NCBI GenBank assembly: GCA_040143965.1
Contig: JASJQH010006884.1
Coordinates: forward strand, 1-58,853
Source of the DNA: Basidiobolus ranarum
Lineage: Eukaryota
Length of the DNA: 58,853 nucleotides
Direction: 5' to 3'
This document shows, piece by piece, positions 34,482 to 57,051 of this stretch (the first letter of the stretch is position 1; each line of letters begins with the position of its first letter). The notes beneath the pieces were generated by a model. It ran no database searches and was not told where the DNA came from. It saw only the letters and a program-made list of their open reading frames with translations. The position numbers and the translations under genes are program-made.

Positions 34482-36664
34482 TTAAGCATCATGCTTAAGT
34501 ACGAGTGCAGTTCGACTAGGGATGTAGACTTGGATATGATTGGGTCGGCCATACCATTCCTCATTAACTGAGAAGAATTCTTGATTTGGATTGATACGAT
34601 CGTGTCCACCGAATACGGGGCTATCAGTATTCAGTACAACGGTGTACTTGCCGGCCCATCCAGTACCAATCTTGTAATCACTGAAGCTCTTACTAGGGTG
34701 GAAATTGAAGATCCAGAGAAGACCTGCTCGCTCGAACGCAATGATCTTATCTTCTTCGTGTTTATGGGAGACGTAAGCTTGGGGGGCTTCTAACCAACGG
34801 TACTCTCCTTCCAAAGTATTCATAGCGCGATCGAACTCATTAAGATGCTTGAAACGGAGTAAATCATCCTGTACCAAGTTGAACTGACGTCTGGCATACT
34901 GGAAGCTACTACCATTACCATCTCGTGGGAAATCAAGCCATTCTGGATGTCCAAATTCATTTCCTTCAAAGTTGAGGTAGCCTTCACCACCGAGGCCTTG
35001 GGTTATTAAGCGGATTAGTTTGTGAAGCGCAATTCCACGATCAATGATAGGGGTCAAGGGGGAAAGGACTGACATGCAGTCATACATTTCTTTGTCCATC
35101 AACCAGAAAGCAATGGTCTTATCTCCAACTAATGCTTGATCGTGAGATTCGCAATAAGTGATGGTCTTCTCCATATGGCGACGGTTGGTTAGAGTGAATA
35201 CAATATGTCCCATCTTCCAATCGTCGTCACGTACTTCCTTCAGGAGTTCGATCCACATATCGGGGACTGCCATACTTAAGCGGTAGTCAAAGCCAACACC
35301 ACCCTCGGCAACTGGGCGACAGAGACCTGGCATGCCAGATACATCTTCCGCTATGGTGATGGTTTCGGGATACAACTTGTGTAGCATGTGATTACCAAGC
35401 ATTAAGTAAACAACTGCTTCCTCATCAACATTCTCATTGAAGTATTCATGGTAGCCTCCGCTGAAGCCAGTACCAATTCCATGATGAACATACATCATGG
35501 AGGTAACTCCATCGAATCGGAACCCATCGATTCTAAACTCCTCCATGTAAAAGCGGAGATTAGAGAGCAAGAAACGAAGCACTTCATGGTTGCCGTAGTT
35601 GAATAGACGACTGTTCCACAGCTCATGACGGCCCTTGGTACCTTCATGGAAGTAACAATGGTCAGAGCCATCAAATTGGTTCAAACCGTCAAGTACATTG
35701 TTGGAGGCGTGTGAGTGAACCATATCTAAGAGAATGTAGATTCCCATTCCGTGGGCAGTGTCGATAAGTCTTTTCAAGTCTTCAGGTGTACCATAGCGAC
35801 TTGAAATGGCGAAGAAGCTAGTGACCTGGTAACCGAAACTAGCATAATAAGCATGCTCCATAATGGCCATCAATTGAATAGCATTATAACCAAGTCTAGC
35901 AATATGAGGTAAGACATTCTCGGTAAATTCATTGTAAGTGGCAACTTTAGGCTCGGGGCTAGAGATACCAACATGCGCCTCGTAGATCTTAAGATCAAGG
36001 GGCTTAGGAGGAGCCTTATTCTTCCAGACATATGGTTTCTCGGGATTCCAGAACCGAGCATCATATATAGGACTAACGTTCAAATCTTGGGTAACGCGTT
36101 TAGCCCAAGCAGGGAGACGATCAATGCGGTCACCTTGTTGTGTAGTCATGGAGATTTTGATTCTACTATCATGTGGAATGGCCACTGTACCGTCGGCTTT
36201 GTTAGGAACGAGAGTTTCCCACACACCGAACTCATCCTTCTTCATAGGGTTGGCTTGATGGTCCCAGTTATTGAAGTCACCAATAAGACTAGCAGCGACC
36301 GCGGTAGGCGCCCATTCACGGTAAACAACGCCTTTAGGAGTTACATTCAAACCCAACTTCTCATAACCACGGGAGAATTTGTCAAAGCCGCCTTCATACT
36401 GCTCAATTTTGTCACACCATTCTTGGAACTTGGCATATCTACATTTAATGGAATACAAATGACAGAAGTTTAGTAGAAGTTTGAAAGAACATTTCCTTTG
36501 TAGTGGATGCATTACCTCTTTGCAAGTGCAGGAGCATATGGTTTAAGCCAAGGATCAATTTCAACGATGCCAGTGCCAGGTGCAGAGGGTTGTGGAGTTT
36601 CCTCAACAGCAGGCTTGGTCTTAGTAGATTGAAGGGATTTTTGATTCATGGGAACAACAGTCAT
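34482..36664 (-). CDS. GLC3: 1,4-alpha-glucan (glycogen) branching enzyme, GH13
   Basis: [30 protein letters not shown]; one intron; start could instead be the ATG at 36649. Confidence 0.96.
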
Positions 36665-37633: not shown

Positions 37634-38679
37634 TCAAAAGACAGTTGTTTGTACAAGACCAGGGAGGTAGTCTGGTGGCTTGATTAATGCAGTCTCATAT
37701 GCTGGTGGCATTTCTTCTCTCTCGTTGAGCTTGTTGGAAAATATATGTACAGGTAATTGAACAGTCAGAAATCGCTTTTTCCTCAACAAATCGATCAAGC
37801 TGATCTGTACCTCTACAAAATGCCATAAATGAATGTATTTCGATTTACTGTCTGCCCTTACTGAACCTTGTCCTTTTGGGACCTTCAGAATAAGTGCTTG
37901 CTCCCACCAACCAGGCGTTTTTGGCCTCCAAACACAAGAGACTCTATCAATCATCTCCTCATGTGTATCTGACCATTCTTCAAAGAAAGTTCGGTATCTC
38001 GTGGCTTCCTTTAGTCGAAAATGAACTTTGAATATTTTGATTCCACAAGATAAAGGTTGAATCCCTAACATGATGGGTATTTCATGTCCAACAATAACAC
38101 GAGGACATGGTATTTCCACAGAGAATTTCATCTGTCCGTGAACATCTCCGGTACGTATCCTCAAGGGCTCTAAATCAGTAGATATGGGGCCAAATGAACG
38201 CTCAACATGTACATATCGTTCACTTTCAAGACTTGTACGAAATCCTGACTTATGAACAACTGCTCTGAACTGATAGCTAATATATCCCTTCTGTGTATGA
38301 ACTGTTTCCGGTATATTCCCATTTAACGGCATTTCGAAATGATACTCGTATCTCCCTTTCTTAAATAACTTGGAGTTCTCGGTCTCCTCGGTAAAACACC
38401 AATTCTTTTTAACTATCGTGTTCTTATATGGCTTTGTTTCTAGTAAGGTTTATAAAGTTAAAAACCTGAGGCAAAAAAAGTGTAGATATAAATAGAAATA
38501 GTACCGTGAATGAGAGCATGTCCAGCAAAGTTTAGTTCGATGGACTTTATTTTGATAGAGTGACAGATCTGTAACAGTAAGTATCCTCGAAGGACGCAAC
38601 CGGCAGATTCTTGGCTAGTTCCACGCAAGATTATGTGGTCATTCTCCAGGTGAATGGAAAGAGAATTTCTGTAGAACAT
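37634..38679 (-). CDS. Alpha-arrestin-like protein with PY motifs
   Basis: N-terminal LRG...LRGYLLL...KIKSIELNF, YEYRFEMPL...IPET...GYISY; C-terminal PPAY and PPDY; one intron. Confidence 0.88.
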
Positions 38680-43228: not shown

Positions 43229-45208
<1,980 letters not shown>

Positions 45209-45900: not shown

Positions 45901-46051
45901 TCTGTTGCTCTTATTTATTAACCGCATGAAGCTTAGCTCTCTGAGGTACCGATCAACGGGATGACGTGGCGTAGCGAGCACAATATATATAAACAAACAC
46001 AAGTGCGTCCATTATATCGAAGCACACAGATCCATTTAACATAAAGCAAGA

Positions 46052-49000
46052 ATGCCAAATACTCAATGCCCATTCCAAACAGGGGATACCAAGCAAGAGT
46101 CTGTCAAAAGCACCGCCACTGACAACGTCGAAGCTAGAACATCCAACAAAAAGACGAAAGTAATAGTGGTCGCCTTCTCAGGGCAAGATATAGAAAAAGA
46201 TGGAGTTGTCGTCAAGTTGCAGACTAACTGGGATCTCGATGATGTGAAGCAGGATTGTGGAGAGAAACTGAATATTCCTGGATATAACAATATAGAATTC
46301 AGCAATGAAGAAGGAGAAAAGATAACATCATTTGGCCAGCTTATGGATAACGATGAAGTCTATATTCTAGGGAATGATTCTTGCCACCAGGAAATTCCCA
46401 CTCCTCCTACAAGTGTTTTCTTCGGTACACTCCCTCAACTCTTACCGGATATCCCTGGATCTCTTAAACGATTCTATAAAGAATACAAAACTCCGATTCT
46501 TCAAATCTACATGTTCTCAACCAGAGTGATTGCCACAAACCACCCAAGCATTGCAGAGGTGATTTCACAAGAAAGTGAGTACTTCACTAAGAGGGTGACA
46601 GCCCAATCTTCCGAGGTAAAAGCCATAGGTGGCGAAGGACTCTTTACTACAAGCTCAGATGAGAATGTGTGGAAGCTTGCACACAAATTGCTAATCCCTG
46701 CATTCTCCAACTCTGCCATGAAAGGCTATGCAGAGGATATGGGTCATCTGGCTTTAAAATTATCCAACGTATTAGGAAGTTTCAAGCCAGACGAACCCTT
46801 CTTGGTGACTGATTGGATGACTAGAATTACTTTTGAAACCATTGGAATGTTAGGGTTTGGATATGATTTTAAATTACTTGATTCTAAAGATTCTCCACTG
46901 CATCCATTTATTGACGCCATGTCATTTTGCTTGACCGAGTTAAAGACAAGGACAAGTCGTTCTCAATATTGGAAAAAACTACCAATCTGGTCCAATTATA
47001 AATTTGATCGAATGATGGACTTGATGAAAAACACTGTGGACGAAGTGATAGCTCAACGCAAAAAGGACGCCGCTCATAACGAGACATTCACCGATCTTCT
47101 GGCATTCATGCTGGATGCACGCGACAAATCTACAGGAGAGAAATTGACCGACGACGTCATTCGCGACCAAGTGCTGACTTTCTTAATTGCTGGCCATGAG
47201 ACCACCTCAAATACACTTTCCTGGTGCTTGTATCTACTGGTTAGACATCCAGCTGTCATGAAGAAAGTCATTCAAGAGATAGTCAACGCCGGTATCGATG
47301 GTGAAAACCCTCCTACCATCGCTCAAGTATCCCAACTCAAGTACGTCAATCAAGTCTTGAAAGAGACTTTAAGGATGTATCCTCCGGTTGCGGCTGTTCA
47401 GAAATATTGTATCAAGGATTGCATTCTGCCATTTGGATATAAAATTGAAAAAGACACTGCAGCTCAGATCAGCATCTACTCTTTACACTATAATCCAGAT
47501 ATCTGGACTGAACCAGAAGTATTCAATCCTGATAGGTTTAGTTCGGCTGAGGAATCCAAAAGATCCCCTTATGCGTGGCTACCTTTCTCCTCTGGACCTC
47601 GCGCCTGTATTGGTATGCAGTTTTCCTTGCAAGAGGCGAAGATTGTCTTAGCAACCATGTTGAGGAGATTCGAGTTTCATTTGATGGATGACAAACCAGT
47701 CTTCTATACCACCGCCTCTGCTACTCTGAAGCCCGAGAATTTGCACATGAGAGTCACTCCTAGAACCGATCTACCCGAGTCGACCTCTCAGTCACCCTCT
47801 GATTCCTTGACCCCCAAAACTGAGCTGACCGCTCCATTGATCACCAAACAACTTTCATCTGATATCGTACTTCCGAAACTCACAGTTTTGTTTGGAAGTA
47901 ACATGGGGCTTTCAGAGGAGTATGCAAACAAAATTGCCAAGTATGCCGTTGAACTTGGCTTTAAAGAGACAGACATTTCCTCACTAGACGAATGGGATGT
48001 TTTAAAAGCTGGTAGATATGAAGGACAAGAAGTAAAGAGCCCCAATAAAATCCCCATGATTCTCGTAGTCACAAGTACTTACAACGGACTGCCACCAGAT
48101 AATGCAAAAGATTTTGACCGATTCATTAGTGCTAAGAGAGATGAATCCGATAAACCATTAAAAGGTCTTCGTTATACAGTGTTTGGGTGTGGAAACAAGC
48201 AATGGAGAACCTATCAGGTCTTCCCTAGCAAAGTCAATGAGGCTTTGGAACGCCTGGGAGCTGACCAGATATTCCCTGCTGGAGCCGGTGATGCAGATGG
48301 TGATATCGATGCTGCTTTTTCAGAATGGTTGGCTAAATTGTACACCTCGTTATTAACTGACTTGGGAATGGAGGGCTCCGGTTTGAATCTTCTTGGCACT
48401 ACTGCCTCACAAGATCCCACAGTTGGCGTTACCTTACGGTACATCTCTCCTGACTGCTCAAAGGAAGTTGATATTGCTAAATGCAATATCCGCAGTACAC
48501 CTCAAGCCCACATCATTGAAAACAAGGAACTCCAGATAATTGAAAAGAGCCATCGTAGTACGCGTCATCTGGATATTGAATTACCTGAAGGTACTGATTA
48601 TAGCGCCGGTGATCATTTAGAAATTGCTCCTGAAAACCAAGCCAGTCTGGTTGAAGAGATAGCAATCGCGTTTGGCTATGCATTAGATGCAGTCTTTGAA
48701 GTTAAAATAGATAGCTCTACAAACAGTTCGATTAGCTCTCGTTCGCTGGCTGCGGTTATCAAAGGACCATGTACTATCCGAAATGCTCTTACTTATTATG
48801 CAGATCTCTTGGCAGTTCCGTCCCGTCAATTCCTTGGTGTTTGCGTTTCAGCCATTTCTGAAGAATATCCGGAATTGGAAAAAGGATACTTGGAAGGAAT
48901 ATGTCAAACTGGAGAGGAGGGAAATAGAATTTATGCCAAGTTCGCGAAAAAGAATCGAACTTTACTTGATTTGATTCACAATTATCCTATGATCAAAAAG

Positions 49001-49720
49001 CTTGATTATCTGGCTTTCCTCTGCGCTATGCCCGTGATGTCGAAACGTAGGTACTCAATCGCTAGTAGTCCACTGGTAAGTAAGAAAATAGCCCAAATTT
49101 GTGTAGGAGTTGTTGAAGATTCTGGGTTTGAAAACAAAATCTATCCAGGCCTTTGCTCCAGCTTCCTTGCTAATTCTAAACCTGGAGTGGCAATACGTGC
49201 CAACGTAAAACCAGCCAAAGATATATTTCATTTACCAGAGGACCCTACTGTCCCAGTAATCATGGTCTGTGCAGGTACCGGGATTGCTCCTTTCCGAGGT
49301 TTCCTCCAAGAGCGTCAGTATTACGGATTGAAATCCATTGAAAAAGGAGGTAAATCCACTACTCATCTATTTTTTGGATGTCGTTCTCCCGAACAAGATT
49401 ATATCTATCGTGATGAACTTGAAGGATTTGTGAACGATGGTACCCTTGATAAACTACATCTCGCGTGCTCTCGCGTCGGTGGCGCCAAAAAGTATGTCCA
49501 ACACGAACTTCTTTCGTCAGCTTCGTTGGTGTGGGACCTTTTACATAACCAAAAGGGGGCATTCTTTGTCTGCGGATCAGCTTCTGGGATGGCTAAAGAA
49601 GTTGCATCAACACTCATCACAATTATTAAACAAATCGGAGGCATCAACGATCAAGAGGCCAACCAATATTTCCAAAAATTACAAGAAAATGGGAAATATA
49701 ATGAAGATGTTTGGGGCTAA
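46052..49720 (+). CDS. Self-sufficient cytochrome P450/NADPH-P450 reductase fusion (CYP102/CYP505-like) with N-terminal extension; intronless
   Basis: TFLIAGHETTS, ETLR, heme motif PFSSGPRACIG, FMN FGSNMG/STYNG, FAD RRYSIASSP, GTGIAPFRGF, terminal EDVWG. Confidence 0.96.
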   Translation: MPNTQCPFQTGDTKQESVKSTATDNVEARTSNKKTKVIVVAFSGQDIEKDGVVVKLQTNWDLDDVKQDCGEKLNIPGYNNIEFSNEEGEKITSFGQLMDNDEVYILGNDSCHQEIPTPPTSVFFGTLPQLLPDIPGSLKRFYKEYKTPILQIYMFSTRVIATNHPSIAEVISQESEYFTKRVTAQSSEVKAIGGEGLFTTSSDENVWKLAHKLLIPAFSNSAMKGYAEDMGHLALKLSNVLGSFKPDEPFLVTDWMTRITFETIGMLGFGYDFKLLDSKDSPLHPFIDAMSFCLTELKTRTSRSQYWKKLPIWSNYKFDRMMDLMKNTVDEVIAQRKKDAAHNETFTDLLAFMLDARDKSTGEKLTDDVIRDQVLTFLIAGHETTSNTLSWCLYLLVRHPAVMKKVIQEIVNAGIDGENPPTIAQVSQLKYVNQVLKETLRMYPPVAAVQKYCIKDCILPFGYKIEKDTAAQISIYSLHYNPDIWTEPEVFNPDRFSSAEESKRSPYAWLPFSSGPRACIGMQFSLQEAKIVLATMLRRFEFHLMDDKPVFYTTASATLKPENLHMRVTPRTDLPESTSQSPSDSLTPKTELTAPLITKQLSSDIVLPKLTVLFGSNMGLSEEYANKIAKYAVELGFKETDISSLDEWDVLKAGRYEGQEVKSPNKIPMILVVTSTYNGLPPDNAKDFDRFISAKRDESDKPLKGLRYTVFGCGNKQWRTYQVFPSKVNEALERLGADQIFPAGAGDADGDIDAAFSEWLAKLYTSLLTDLGMEGSGLNLLGTTASQDPTVGVTLRYISPDCSKEVDIAKCNIRSTPQAHIIENKELQIIEKSHRSTRHLDIELPEGTDYSAGDHLEIAPENQASLVEEIAIAFGYALDAVFEVKIDSSTNSSISSRSLAAVIKGPCTIRNALTYYADLLAVPSRQFLGVCVSAISEEYPELEKGYLEGICQTGEEGNRIYAKFAKKNRTLLDLIHNYPMIKKLDYLAFLCAMPVMSKRRYSIASSPLVSKKIAQICVGVVEDSGFENKIYPGLCSSFLANSKPGVAIRANVKPAKDIFHLPEDPTVPVIMVCAGTGIAPFRGFLQERQYYGLKSIEKGGKSTTHLFFGCRSPEQDYIYRDELEGFVNDGTLDKLHLACSRVGGAKKYVQHELLSSASLVWDLLHNQKGAFFVCGSASGMAKEVASTLITIIKQIGGINDQEANQYFQKLQENGKYNEDVWG

Positions 49721-51078: not shown

Positions 51079-52098
51079 ATGAGTCCTAAACTCCAAATTG
51101 AATTAGATCAGGACACTTTTTACAAGAGTGGTCTTGAAGAAGATAACTCCGCCTCTATCCTTAAAGGAAAACTCATTTTTAGCCCGTCCACATCCGTCAA
51201 GGTTTTGTTCATTACTCTTTGCTTTCGAGGAAAATTGCTATTGAACAGAGGTTTTCAATCCACACGCAAAACTCTGTTCCAGCACACATGGACCTTCCAC
51301 AGAAATGTCGGATCCACCGTTTTCGATGCACAGAAAACCTATACATACGATTTCGAACTTCCCTTACCTTCTGATCTTCCAGAGTCATGTGTCGCTGACT
51401 ATGCCAAGATCCAGTACAGTCTGAAAGCATCCGTGGAAACACCCTTGTTTTCTTCCAACATCAGAACAGACAAAGCTGTCTTTATTCACCAGAACAATAG
51501 CCAAGTCTTATCAGTTGCCTACAATACTCACATTCAGAACTTATGGAAAGACATGGTCAACTATGAGGTGATCATTCCTAGCCATGAATATATCCCTGGC
51601 GATAGTTTCCCTGTCACATTCAAGCATCAAGCTCTGGACACCAAATGCAAAATTGTCAGCGTCTGGGCTGGCTTGAATGAAAAAACCACATACAATAATG
51701 GCGATGGTAACTCAGCGGATGAAGGTTGCCTGGTAAAAAAATGGTTACAAACTGCAGGGGGTGAAGTTGCTGATGGAGACGATATGAGCTATCTGTCACT
51801 AACCGTTCCCAAATCCTGCAAAAATGTGCATTACGACTCGAATACACCCTACGTACAAGTGGTTCACAGTCTTTCCACAAGAATCGATGTAGAAATCAAT
51901 GGAGAAATCCAACAAATTCGCTCCATACTTCCAGTTTGCATCGTTCATCATACAACAGCTCCTTCCTCCTTGAATGAGGTATATGAGCAGTTGCCAACCT
52001 ATGAGATAATCCGACTCGATTGTCCACCCACTTACGCAACAACAAAGGGTGTTATCACTGAAGCCCCACCTGCTTATCAACATGAGCTCACCGCTTGA
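51079..52098 (+). CDS. Alpha-arrestin-like protein, intronless
   Basis: ILKGKLIF...YTYDFELPLPSDLPES...IQYSLKA; C-terminal LPTY, PPTY, PPAY. Confidence 0.88.
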   Translation: MSPKLQIELDQDTFYKSGLEEDNSASILKGKLIFSPSTSVKVLFITLCFRGKLLLNRGFQSTRKTLFQHTWTFHRNVGSTVFDAQKTYTYDFELPLPSDLPESCVADYAKIQYSLKASVETPLFSSNIRTDKAVFIHQNNSQVLSVAYNTHIQNLWKDMVNYEVIIPSHEYIPGDSFPVTFKHQALDTKCKIVSVWAGLNEKTTYNNGDGNSADEGCLVKKWLQTAGGEVADGDDMSYLSLTVPKSCKNVHYDSNTPYVQVVHSLSTRIDVEINGEIQQIRSILPVCIVHHTTAPSSLNEVYEQLPTYEIIRLDCPPTYATTKGVITEAPPAYQHELTA

Positions 52099-53852: not shown

Positions 53853-56501
53853 TTACCAAAAATTGTGCTCCCGAAGCCACTTTTCAGCAATTTTGGAATT
53901 GTGTTGGAGCCATTGAATATTTAGTAAAACAGGCTTCCGGATGTTATTCCAACTGTCGATGTATTGTGCAGGCTTACTGGCAAAAAAAAGATCCCACCTG
54001 TCAAGATCGGCTTGTGAATCGACAAACTGATACATATTAGATATGTAATAATTCAAAACTTGAGAACCTTGTGGCTGAGATTCCACAGCGTGAAAATCCT
54101 GGAGAATACGCTTGGTCAGACGGTCTCGTGTTGGCGGGTTGATCGAAATTGTCTCCATCACACCGACCAAGTCGCTGGCAGAAATAGTTCCATTGAGTAT
54201 CATGTCAAGAAATTGGTCGGATGCTACCTGCTCTTGCACCGCTGCGCTAGCTATTGCCAATAGACTGCGCATTTCAGAGTCTCGGGCGGCTAGATAGAGC
54301 TTCATGACTTGATCAAACGTTTCCTTCCCGGAATCCATGACGTGCATCCAAAGTGAGAATGCTAATAGGTTCATATTAAGTGCAGTGGTATCACCGGCAA
54401 GATAACGTTGTGCGCGTAATTGTGAATCACGTTTGACCTCTGGTGAACGACTACTGATTGCACCAATGAGTCTGACGGTGCGTAGCGCTATTTGGTCTGC
54501 TGTCTCATTGGATGGAAAATCCCAGTTTGACGAGGAGTAATAATGGCCAAATATTCTCCATATGAGGTGACGAATCGCTTCTGTGTTTTCTACCCCTGGT
54601 GTCATACGACGCCCGAAACGCAGTAGAAGCCAGTTTAGTCGATACATCACCAAGGGATCAGTTTCATTGGTTAACGCAAGTGAGTACTCAAACAATTGAT
54701 CAGCTGTGTACTCGCCACTCTCTGAAAGGGCTAAATAATCATATGCAAGTGCAACCCGGTCGTCAGATGAGATATCGGCCTCACCATGTTTTATCGCACG
54801 AGCTATTGCATTGACATTATCTTGAGGATACCAAATCAGGAATGGACTCCCGGCGTCTTTGTTAAGTAGGTAATAGGGCTTGGTAGCCATTTGAAGATTT
54901 TGGGAACTGGTGTTGAAGATGGTTGGAGCAGTGGCATTATTACCAGTAGTGATAGGAATTTGCCATATCGTCCTGTCCTTACTGCTGGCCGCTTCACTAT
55001 TTAATGCATAGTAACGATGCTGGTTGAGAATCAACTTGTTATTATCGGCTTTTACGGTGACTATTGGAGACCCCGGATGATTAAGCCATGCATCAACGAG
55101 TTGACCAACATCATGACCAGTGATTTGACTAATAATATACACTAGATCAGCTGTACGCACATTGCGAAGCTTATATCTTGAAAGGAGCTGATGAAGCGCA
55201 GTACGAATGGCGTCAGAGCCTAGTGTATGCACAAGCATTTGAACCACAGAAGAACTCTTATCATTCACAATGCCACTGAACGCTGTGTCACTTCTGACTG
55301 GCTGTGTATCGTTGAAGCGATCAGCCTCAATGCTACCTTGCCAGCGACCAGGTGCGCCTCCCATGCCAGCGACGAACCATGAGTTCATCTGTGACTTCCA
55401 TTCGGGCATCACGGTTGCCATGGCTCTTGTTTCGTACCAATTAGCAAACCCATTACTAAGCCATAGGTCTTTCCATTGCGCTGGTGTAACTAGGCCTCCT
55501 AACCACTGATGTGCCATTACACGTGCTACGTTAAGTGCAGCACTTTGGACGTCAAACAGGGCCCATGTCTTCAAATTGAAAAGCAGCGTGATTTCATTAT
55601 AGATTACTAAGCCCCAGCCAAGAGAAGTAGAAGCAACATTTGGTAGAGCAATCTGATCATACTTCTCTAATGGGAATGGCAACTGAAACATTTGTTCATA
55701 GTATCCTATGAGTCGATCAGTAATATCAAGTGCTAACTGACCGTCATATACACTGTCAGCCACCGAATAGAGGCGTAAGCGAACAGGCTTATTGGTTTGT
55801 TTACTGTTCTGCTCAAGATATCGGAATTTACCCATTGCGAATGTCAACAAATAAGTCGACATTGGTGGAGTGAGCGTAAATTGGATTTGTTTGAGATCAG
55901 AATCCGGAACATCGTTTTCACTCAACACTTGCGTGTTAGTAATAGCCATTAGTTTACGTGATATAATGACAGTATTGTTGAATGTTGCCTTGTATTCAGG
56001 ACTATCCCAGCCTGGAACTATCCACCGGAACCCCTCACGCCCCGATTGCGACACAGCTGCTCGATGGATCGTGCCATTCGTATCCATATACTCAACCCTT
56101 TTGAGGCCTCCACCTTGACTCAATATTGGCGAAGTAAAGTTAATTCCAAGCACAACATCCTTGGCCGATATGACTTTGTTAAAGGTTGCGGTCGCAGTTC
56201 CTGCCTCATCGTTGATCTGGAGTGAAGTAGCATGATTCTCTTCGGAGTCGGCCATGGATATAAAGGCGTTATGAAGAGTGATGTTTTTTGCATCAAACGT
56301 TAATTTATTGCTCTTTTCGTGTACTCGAAGGTTGATCTTGACAAATCCTGGGCATTCCCAGCTATCGAGATTAGGCTGGAGAACAACCTCATAGTGAGTT
56401 GGCGTTACAGCAACTAGCAGCACTCCTGGAAGCGAGCCGATAGCAATCACAAAAAGTAGCATATGTAGGAACGAGTAACTCATGGCGTATGAATGAGACA
56501 T
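53853..56501 (-). CDS. Secreted M1 aminopeptidase-fold protein, predicted catalytically inactive; intronless
   Basis: TPPMSTYL, FPLEKYDQIALP, AHQWLGGLVT...LWL; ERAP-like C-terminal region; hydrophobic N-terminus; HEXXH reads RVMAH. Confidence 0.9.
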   Translation of the reverse strand: MSHSYAMSYSFLHMLLFVIAIGSLPGVLLVAVTPTHYEVVLQPNLDSWECPGFVKINLRVHEKSNKLTFDAKNITLHNAFISMADSEENHATSLQINDEAGTATATFNKVISAKDVVLGINFTSPILSQGGGLKRVEYMDTNGTIHRAAVSQSGREGFRWIVPGWDSPEYKATFNNTVIISRKLMAITNTQVLSENDVPDSDLKQIQFTLTPPMSTYLLTFAMGKFRYLEQNSKQTNKPVRLRLYSVADSVYDGQLALDITDRLIGYYEQMFQLPFPLEKYDQIALPNVASTSLGWGLVIYNEITLLFNLKTWALFDVQSAALNVARVMAHQWLGGLVTPAQWKDLWLSNGFANWYETRAMATVMPEWKSQMNSWFVAGMGGAPGRWQGSIEADRFNDTQPVRSDTAFSGIVNDKSSSVVQMLVHTLGSDAIRTALHQLLSRYKLRNVRTADLVYIISQITGHDVGQLVDAWLNHPGSPIVTVKADNNKLILNQHRYYALNSEAASSKDRTIWQIPITTGNNATAPTIFNTSSQNLQMATKPYYLLNKDAGSPFLIWYPQDNVNAIARAIKHGEADISSDDRVALAYDYLALSESGEYTADQLFEYSLALTNETDPLVMYRLNWLLLRFGRRMTPGVENTEAIRHLIWRIFGHYYSSSNWDFPSNETADQIALRTVRLIGAISSRSPEVKRDSQLRAQRYLAGDTTALNMNLLAFSLWMHVMDSGKETFDQVMKLYLAARDSEMRSLLAIASAAVQEQVASDQFLDMILNGTISASDLVGVMETISINPPTRDRLTKRILQDFHAVESQPQGSQVLNYYISNMYQFVDSQADLDRWDLFFASKPAQYIDSWNNIRKPVLLNIQWLQHNSKIAEKWLREHNFW

Positions 56502-57051
56502 AGATGAGTTGCATATTTATACTTATGATATGCCAATGAATCGAACTGCAATGGAGCCAGTAAAGAATATTGGAAAAACCAATTGCTTGGCGTGCTGACA
56601 AATAACCAACAGTTTTTCCTTCGTTTTTCCGTGCTTAGGCTAGTCTAGCACACTGAATATCGAAAACAATTCTTGACAACAACTTCTAAGGTATGCCCCA
56701 CTATGCGCATTAGAATTACCAATTACCTAAATTCTACTATTGTTAGTTGTACACTTGATAATAACGCTCTCTGATTAGTTTGTTAACTTCAATAATGATG
56801 AATATAGCTTCAACAAGCAAGGCTTGCAACACAAGTCCCTATATTCTAATTGAGAATTTCTCTATATCTCTTTAATTAGGATGGCTTGCTACACCCCCTT
56901 ATCTATTATTTTCTATTACACAAACTCCAGATTATCTCAAACCATTGATTTACATCTCTGCCCTCTTAGTCAGGTGCCTCGTATTTCTACTCGTTTATTC
57001 CGCAACGACATACGAAATCAATTGTACGAAAGTGTTGCAGTTTGAATTGTC

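Follow-up and report, generated by a model that had tools for sequence, protein, structure and literature searches.

Cytochrome P450 BM3 (CYP102A1) and its fungal cousins serve as the model self-sufficient P450s and as workhorses of biocatalysis, and their accepted architecture has two parts, a heme domain and a reductase. In Dikarya, the CYP505 enzymes begin directly with the heme domain. The fungal CYP505/P450foxy enzymes are described as catalytically self-sufficient sub-terminal fatty-acid hydroxylases resembling BM3 (PMC4950769), and members of the CYP505 clan have been reported in four fungal phyla (PMC4122930). Here, we analyzed a 58,853-nt stretch of Basidiobolus ranarum contig JASJQH010006884.1 (hereafter the window; all coordinates are positions in it), in which a P450-reductase fusion gene of this kind begins with 339 bases (46052-46390, residues 1-113) that lie ahead of the heme domain.

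Enzymes of this class are well known; what is new is the N-terminal ubiquitin-like domain encoded in these bases, which has no Pfam record in any of the 120 relatives examined and is visible in about 100 deposited proteins. In our literature search, with subscription journals and supplements outside its scope, no paper was found to describe such an N-terminal domain in P450-reductase fusions of fungi. The best explanation as a whole, to which we assign a probability of roughly 0.6, is a three-piece N-terminus in a vertically inherited family, carrying a non-catalytic interaction module.

The N-terminus of the fusion gene

The gene consists of one uninterrupted open reading frame (ORF) of 1222 codons on the forward strand (46052-49720), without internal stop or frame break, as expected from the original prediction, which had called it intronless. 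Pfam placed the p450 family at residues 116-562 (E = 3.7e-94), followed by Flavodoxin_1 (612-759), FAD_binding_1 (818-1038), and NAD_binding_1 (1071-1185), all above the curated cut-offs. The protein thus has the make-up of CYP102/CYP505-type fusions, i.e., a P450 domain and then the flavin mononucleotide (FMN), flavin adenine dinucleotide (FAD), and nicotinamide adenine dinucleotide (phosphate) [NAD(P)H] domains in one polypeptide. Within residues 1-116 no significant Pfam family was found, only chance-level matches. In alignments with solved CYP102-type chains, residues 4-7 of those chains fell opposite query residues 113-115, and since the solved chains begin there, about 112 residues of the fusion are extra. 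When the model of residues 1-580 was compared with solved structures using Foldseek, the BM3 heme domain spanned about 465 of the 580 modelled residues (TMt 0.94, root-mean-square deviation [rmsd] ~2.1, 34-35% identity).

The earlier claim that about 110 amino acids (aa) precede the P450 start without a membrane anchor agreed well with these results, and the two strings on which it drew (TKVIVVAF... and IPTPP..FFGTL) were found where it had placed them. A membrane anchor was rejected, the highest 19-residue Kyte-Doolittle mean being 0.81 over the first 140 windows. Downstream, a 56-row alignment showed R517, C519, and G521 to be invariant and F512 nearly so, all within FSSGPRACIG (residues 512-521), which we take to be the heme-ligand loop; T384 was also invariant, within AGHETT (residues 380-385), presumably the I-helix motif. 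In identity and anatomy, we consider it very probable that the 339 bases encode the genuine N-terminal part of a self-sufficient P450 of CYP102/CYP505 type whose gene is intact. The features of the locus, all on the forward (+) strand, are as follows, with the evidence for each in parentheses.

46052-49720, +: whole intronless gene, a 1222-aa P450-NADPH reductase fusion with an N-terminal extension (ORF and Pfam; stop codon at 49718-49720)
46037-46039, +: in-frame TAA upstream of the ATG (15 nt 5' of the start codon)
46052-46156, +: leader, residues 1-35, polar and predicted to be disordered (predicted local distance difference test [pLDDT] and orthologue identity)
46067-46072, +: Cys6-Pro7 motif within the leader (sequence and count of Cys-Pro dipeptides)
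46157-46375, +: predicted ubiquitin-like beta-grasp domain, residues 36-108, acidic (AlphaFold2 models, fold searches, family alignment, and composition)
46376-46393, +: hinge, residues 109-114, running up to the conserved I-P-x-P with which the heme domain begins (pLDDT and conserved columns)
46394-47761, +: P450 heme domain of CYP102/BM3 type, residues 115-570 (Pfam, PDB sequence matches, and Foldseek)
47762-47872, +: Ser/Thr/Pro-rich linker from heme domain to reductase, residues 571-607 (sequence and Pfam boundaries)
47873-49717, +: diflavin reductase with FMN flavodoxin, FAD, and NAD(P)H domains, residues 608-1222 (Pfam)

The start ATG has an A at position -3, and the TAA at 46037-46039 is the 5' bound of the ORF, barring an unseen upstream exon.

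Fold and family of the ubiquitin-like domain

Two alignments were used for AlphaFold2 modelling, A1 with 43 rows for residues 30-120 and A2 with 56 rows for residues 1-580. In the shorter model (mean pLDDT 82.4), the predicted order of elements was strand-strand-helix-strand-strand-helix-strand, and DSSP assignments of both models gave the four- to five-stranded mixed sheet gripping one helix that defines a ubiquitin-like beta-grasp. Among solved structures, the best Foldseek matches of the domain model were all ubiquitin-like (a bacterial Ubl at E = 2e-3, SUMO, NEDD8, the doublecortin C-domain, and PB1), and none reached E ≤ 0.001. VIA-align, run against 48,161 representative chains, gave its top rank to the human doublecortin C-domain 5ip4_D (Z = 9.8; 75 of 80 residues aligned with an rmsd of 2.7 and 17% identity). 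Twenty-one chains had a Z of at least 8, and all 50 rows listed were ubiquitin-like, RA/RBD, PB1, CIDE, or DCX; a second VIA pass over Foldseek's top 997 chains agreed with this, returning 135 chains with a Z of at least 8, with Ufm1 (9.2), ELMO (9.2), and the RalGDS RA domain (8.8) next after doublecortin. The doublecortin match led the bulk of ubiquitin-like domains (e.g., Hub1 and BAG6) by about 1-1.5 Z, on a scale where models of any kind often have a top Z of 7-8. Because of this, and because doublecortin stood less than 1 Z above the next matches, we assign only a fold class: the modelled domain is securely placed as ubiquitin-like, and nothing finer.

The longer model (mean pLDDT 90.2, predicted template modelling score [pTM] 0.87) had pLDDT values below 50 in residues 1-32 only. 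In this model, which includes the heme domain, the ubiquitin-like domain and the hinge scored 87-94, compared to about 82 for the domain alone, and with a pLDDT of 88 for residues 101-110 and 93 for residues 111-120 no low-confidence linker separated it from the heme domain. Conservation was seen in hinge columns I111, K112, and I115-P118, as well as in the polar columns E48, G51, R/K66, E71, K72, D80, G88, and D95 of the domain itself. Residues 36-108 are acidic, with 15 Asp/Glu versus 6 Lys/Arg. The window was also searched for a further copy of the domain, which was rejected, the next-best match having E = 0.074.

The original prediction had gone further and likened the segment to KHA, a domain found at the C-terminal end of Shaker-type K+ channels or in KCTD9. 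Among Pfam families, KHA was indeed the one matched by most A1 members, although these were 4 of 43 (best E = 0.0011), leaving 39 without a KHA match. Other families of the ubiquitin clan (DCX2_DCDC1, RA_2, USP7 UBL, UCH_UBL1, Ufm1, and TUG-UBL1) were each matched by one or two of the 43, DCX2_DCDC1 by two relatives at E ≥ 0.016. The window's own sequence gave no KHA match at E ≤ 10 and no DCX Pfam match. Among 40 further full-length relatives, mostly from Mucorales, there was no KHA or ubiquitin-like Pfam match, in a search whose HMMER filters discard most matches above E ~0.1. In the ESM Atlas, the window's domain ranked a plant KHA cluster first (0.94, 190 of 256 features shared), followed by doublecortin clusters in second and third place (0.89) and, lower down, CIDE-N (0.86), whereas the corresponding domain from Mucor had no usable match there.

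With the A1 profile, ubiquitin came first among PDB sequences at a nonsignificant E of 0.083, and a single-sequence phmmer search of the domain against PDB had a best E of 0.13. Against 1.84 billion representatives, phmmer with the domain retrieved only two proteins, P0003 and P0121, and no K+ channel or KCTD protein. P0121, a 1961-aa bacterial protein with repeats of about 70 residues that matched in five stretches (E = 1.7e-09), was rejected as a homologue and judged a compositional false positive from repetitive sequence. When the A1 profile was run against longer proteins, all seven matches were P450-reductase fusions, among 8000 candidates chosen for sharing the most words, a selection that is weak on other architectures. 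What remains of the earlier call is thus a folded beta-grasp ahead of the heme domain, while membership in KHA was not established. By sequence, links to any named ubiquitin-like family are sub-significant, and our reading is that the domain forms a separate sequence family in the ubiquitin-like fold class, with KHA and doublecortin as its nearest named relatives.

Distribution, descent, and coding status

To follow the domain among relatives, we examined the best 120 of 1659 matches from a search with the heme part. These were P450-reductase fusions of about 1190-1220 aa, plus one unrelated insect protein, and they came from Basidiobolus, Mucorales, Umbelopsis, Endogone, Jimgerdemannia, Calcarisporiella, Kickxellomycotina (Dimargaris, Dispira, Linderina, and Dipsacomyces), many chytrids, Blastocladiomycota, and Sorochytrium. 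In 103 of the 120, the P450 start was preceded by 60-160 residues that aligned as one family. Two proteins (P0063 and P0108) had shorter extensions with part of the domain pattern recognizable by eye, and three (P0067 from Bifiguratus and the Umbelopsis-type P0117 and P0120) had only 6-15 residues before the heme domain; 11 protein models were cut at the N-terminus and not judgeable, and one (P0034) had another architecture. When only the 96 N-termini from outside Basidiobolus were used to make a profile, it matched all seven Basidiobolus N-termini (E = 3e-13 to 4e-7, Z = 1e6) and none of 147 reversed or shuffled controls. Precomputed Pfam lists recorded the N-terminal domain in none of the 120 homologues.

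In four early-diverging groups of fungi (Chytridiomycota, Blastocladiomycota, Zoopagomycota, and Mucoromycota), most P450-reductase fusions thus carry the domain as a third part immediately before the heme domain, and it has been overlooked rather than being unique. This splits the earlier claim of an undescribed architecture, which holds for the record (no Pfam entry in the 120 homologues, no paper found). With 103 of 120, however, the architecture is common in deposited proteomes, and its being common already among annotated CYP fusions was an outcome that the original prediction had named as refuting.

For 105 of the 120 proteins, a FastTree phylogeny (unrooted, by this fast method) was computed from an alignment of their catalytic parts without the N-terminal domain, after removal of 15 truncated or odd rows (P0008, P0034, P0057, P0060, P0063, P0068, P0070, P0078, P0101, P0111, P0112, P0114, P0116, P0118, and P0119). 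The seven Basidiobolus proteins formed one clade (support 100) with two subclades, in which the window's gene grouped with P0002 and P0003. Kickxellomycotina and Blastocladiomycota were nearby, the chytrids made up one clade and Mucoromycota another, and deep nodes are unsure because of long branches flagged for Linderina, Paraphysoderma, and Dimargaris. The domain-less P0067, P0117, and P0120 nested within Mucoromycota, which points to loss of the domain or to mis-annotated starts. Among the matches listed, P0001-P0007 also represent a lineage-specific expansion in Basidiobolus, with two well-supported subclades.

The closest protein, a B. ranarum "hypothetical protein," was 84% identical over all 1222 residues without a gap. 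Identity to this orthologue was 51% in the leader (residues 1-35), 84% in residues 36-108, 82% in the heme domain, 73% in the inter-domain linker, and 88% in the reductase. Compared with a Mucorales protein, the ubiquitin-like domain was 29% identical versus 50% for the heme domain. When codons of the extension were scored with a table from the rest of the gene, the log-likelihood per codon was -3.96 in frame 0 and -4.46 and -4.40 in the other frames. From the codon fit of frame 0, the 84% identity of the domain to the orthologue, and the recovery of all seven Basidiobolus N-termini by the profile, we conclude that the extension has the sequence signature of a protein-coding segment and is not a chance reading frame.

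It could still be argued that the extension is an annotation artefact, with translation from a downstream ATG, or that the gene came from bacteria in a recent transfer or arose as a retrocopy, origins that the original prediction had raised for an intronless gene. In-frame ATGs do occur at codons 98 and 154; however, Met98 lies within the ubiquitin-like fold and Met154 within the P450 domain, and the extension fits the codon usage of frame 0, is conserved like the catalytic parts, and recurs in 103 of the 120 best homologues from several phyla. As for a bacterial source, the near relatives all come from fungi and have in common a domain that is fungal-only, the solved bacterial CYP102 enzymes are without it, and the phylogeny followed fungal taxonomy. 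The gene is indeed without an intron, but no poly(A) tract was found 3' of the stop codon, and neighbouring genes are also long single ORFs. Neither a recent bacterial acquisition nor a retrocopy is therefore supported, and we regard this whole group of explanations as highly improbable. Most simply, a three-part gene of old standing among fungi would have been passed on vertically.

The genes around it are ordinary eukaryotic ones, coding for an AAA ATPase (an exon), two arrestin-domain proteins, an M1 aminopeptidase, and a glycogen-branching-type enzyme. The ORF at 44265-44810 (+) matched positions 44-131 only of the AAA ATPase profile and probably represents a single exon of an AAA ATPase gene with introns, which would lie immediately 5' of the P450 gene. 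The M1 aminopeptidase (53853-56516, -; 887 codons) and the glycogen-branching-type enzyme of the alpha-amylase family (34482-36542, -; 686 codons) are each encoded by a single ORF, and intron-free coding stretches are thus not unusual in the window. Two arrestin-domain ORFs were located about 7.6 kb upstream (37634-38449, -) and about 1.4 kb downstream (51079-52098, +) of the P450 gene, on opposite strands, with Arrestin_C matches at E = 9e-13 and 1.3e-17, respectively.

Possible roles of the domain and comparison with known systems

By homology, catalysis would proceed as in P450 BM3, from NADPH via FAD and FMN to the heme, and a fatty-acid-like substrate would be hydroxylated, with the extra domain presumably taking no part in catalysis. 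In BM3, the substrate-access channel lies on the N-terminal side of the heme domain. The models suggest that the ubiquitin-like domain may be held fixed on this side, where its conserved charged surface could bind either another subunit or some partner or compartment of the cell, and such a protein contact would set the assembly state or the location of the enzyme. We tentatively favor this role, a non-catalytic interaction module beside the N-terminal face of the modelled heme domain, while placing it somewhat below an even chance.

Several results weigh against the explanation that we prefer. The domain's link to any named ubiquitin-like family stayed below significance, as seen from the 40 relatives without a Pfam match, the Mucor domain without a usable Atlas match, and the nonsignificant ubiquitin hit among PDB sequences. 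The fixed mounting is suggested by model confidence (pLDDT and pTM), where the pTM of 0.87 mostly reflects the heme domain because of its size; similarly, the putative substrate class follows from 34-35% identity to BM3. Moreover, three relatives seem to function with no such domain, which would make it dispensable in some lineages.

In the main rival to an interaction module, the domain would have no outside partner and would instead pack against the heme domain of its own chain, as an intramolecular accessory that stabilizes folding or gates the substrate-access channel or the docking of the FMN domain. The high pLDDT over residues 101-120 with no low-confidence linker, the pTM, the rise in domain pLDDT when the heme domain is attached, and the conserved hinge columns would all fit such packing. 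However, the no-linker model supports the two readings equally, and the faster divergence of the domain than of the heme domain in the Mucorales comparison fits a peripheral module. The existence of relatives without the domain also counts against an intramolecular part, and we see the accessory as somewhat unlikely. The domain could also be a true KHA domain, as in plant Shaker-type K+ channels and KCTD9, driving homo-oligomerization of the fusion into a dimer or tetramer. BM3 works as a dimer, and the shared fold class, the first rank in the ESM Atlas, and the lead of KHA among Pfam families in A1 would be in line with this. On the other hand, the window's sequence and nearly all of its relatives were without a KHA match, the Mucor domain and the phmmer search gave no link to KHA proteins, and the N-terminal position on an enzyme differs from the known KHA contexts. 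Taken together, this makes a KHA-driven assembly unlikely.

A further possibility was raised by the leader, in which C6-P7-F8 has the features of a heme regulatory motif, i.e., Cys-Pro (CP) followed by a hydrophobic residue in a flexible segment (pLDDT below 50). Leaders of at least 12 residues were present in 24 of the 103 domain-bearing proteins, the other 79 being shorter. The 24 long leaders contained 15 CP dipeptides versus 0.36 expected from the 11 CP in the 28,263 remaining positions of the same proteins, an enrichment of about 40-fold. CP was found in 11 of the 24 (three from Basidiobolus, two from Kickxellales, and six from Blastocladiomycota), namely, besides the window's protein, in P0002, P0003, P0060, P0092, P0099, P0101, P0105, P0110, P0113, and P0115. 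A hydrophobic residue often followed the CP, and a His was located within 2-3 residues in 5 of the 11. Since the CP-bearing rows are related, they amount to about three independent observations.

Leader and domain could on these grounds act together in heme-responsive control, with CP binding labile heme and tuning the stability, maturation, or assembly of the P450; the enrichment in three lineages and the residues flanking the CP would be consistent with this, and Cys-Pro signatures have been reported as the heme regulatory motifs of heme oxygenase-2 (PMC2742820). Against it stand the relatedness of the rows, the 79 short leaders, only one of which contains a Cys, and the distribution within Basidiobolus, where CP was confined to the subclade holding the window's gene and 4 of 7 paralogues were without it. 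We consider such control improbable. A broader speculation, which we also rate as quite unlikely, is that early-diverging fungi have kept a regulated form of BM3, in which the CP of the leader and the domain on the substrate-channel side would sense heme supply or redox state and switch stability, subunit assembly (and hence electron transfer between subunits), or location, an arrangement that would have been lost in the CYP505 enzymes of Dikarya and never present in bacterial CYP102.

The finding of a third part raises the question of what controls oligomeric state, location, or stability in these fusions. For enzymologists, the results provide a construct boundary, i.e., a cut near residue 112 or a decision to keep the domain, and the relatives with and without it form a natural comparison set in which P0067, P0117, and P0120 would be useful comparators. 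They also place ubiquitin-like domains of the KHA/doublecortin kind in a new enzyme context. No long-standing problem is resolved by this, and the window's gene is one of many with the same architecture.

Among the systems compared, the heme regulatory motifs of heme oxygenase-2 and the like share with the leader a CP dipeptide that sits in a heme-related enzyme, within a disordered stretch; the likeness is one of motif only, and most members of the family are without a leader. KHA (PF11834) has in common with the domain its ubiquitin-like fold class, the most frequent weak Pfam match (4 of 43), and the top Atlas cluster, and differs in that its profile was unmatched by the window's sequence and the 40 further relatives and in its protein context and position. 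Doublecortin (DCX, PF03607) supplied the best solved structural match (5ip4_D) and the second and third Atlas clusters, but the fusion lacks a tandem arrangement, and the DCX Pfam family was unmatched by the window's sequence. The fungal class VIII enzymes CYP505/P450foxy are P450-diflavin reductase fusions like the one described here, with an N-terminal heme domain and a C-terminal reductase, and an extra N-terminal domain is unmentioned in the accessible part of their description (PMC4950769). CYP102A1 and the bacterial CYP102 enzymes likewise combine the heme domain and then the FMN/FAD/NADPH reductase in one polypeptide, and they are close enough for PDB sequence matches down to E = 3.5e-83 and for the heme-domain superposition given above. 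Their solved chains, however, start opposite residues 113-115 of the Basidiobolus protein, with neither the leader nor the ubiquitin-like domain that precede this point in the fungal enzyme.

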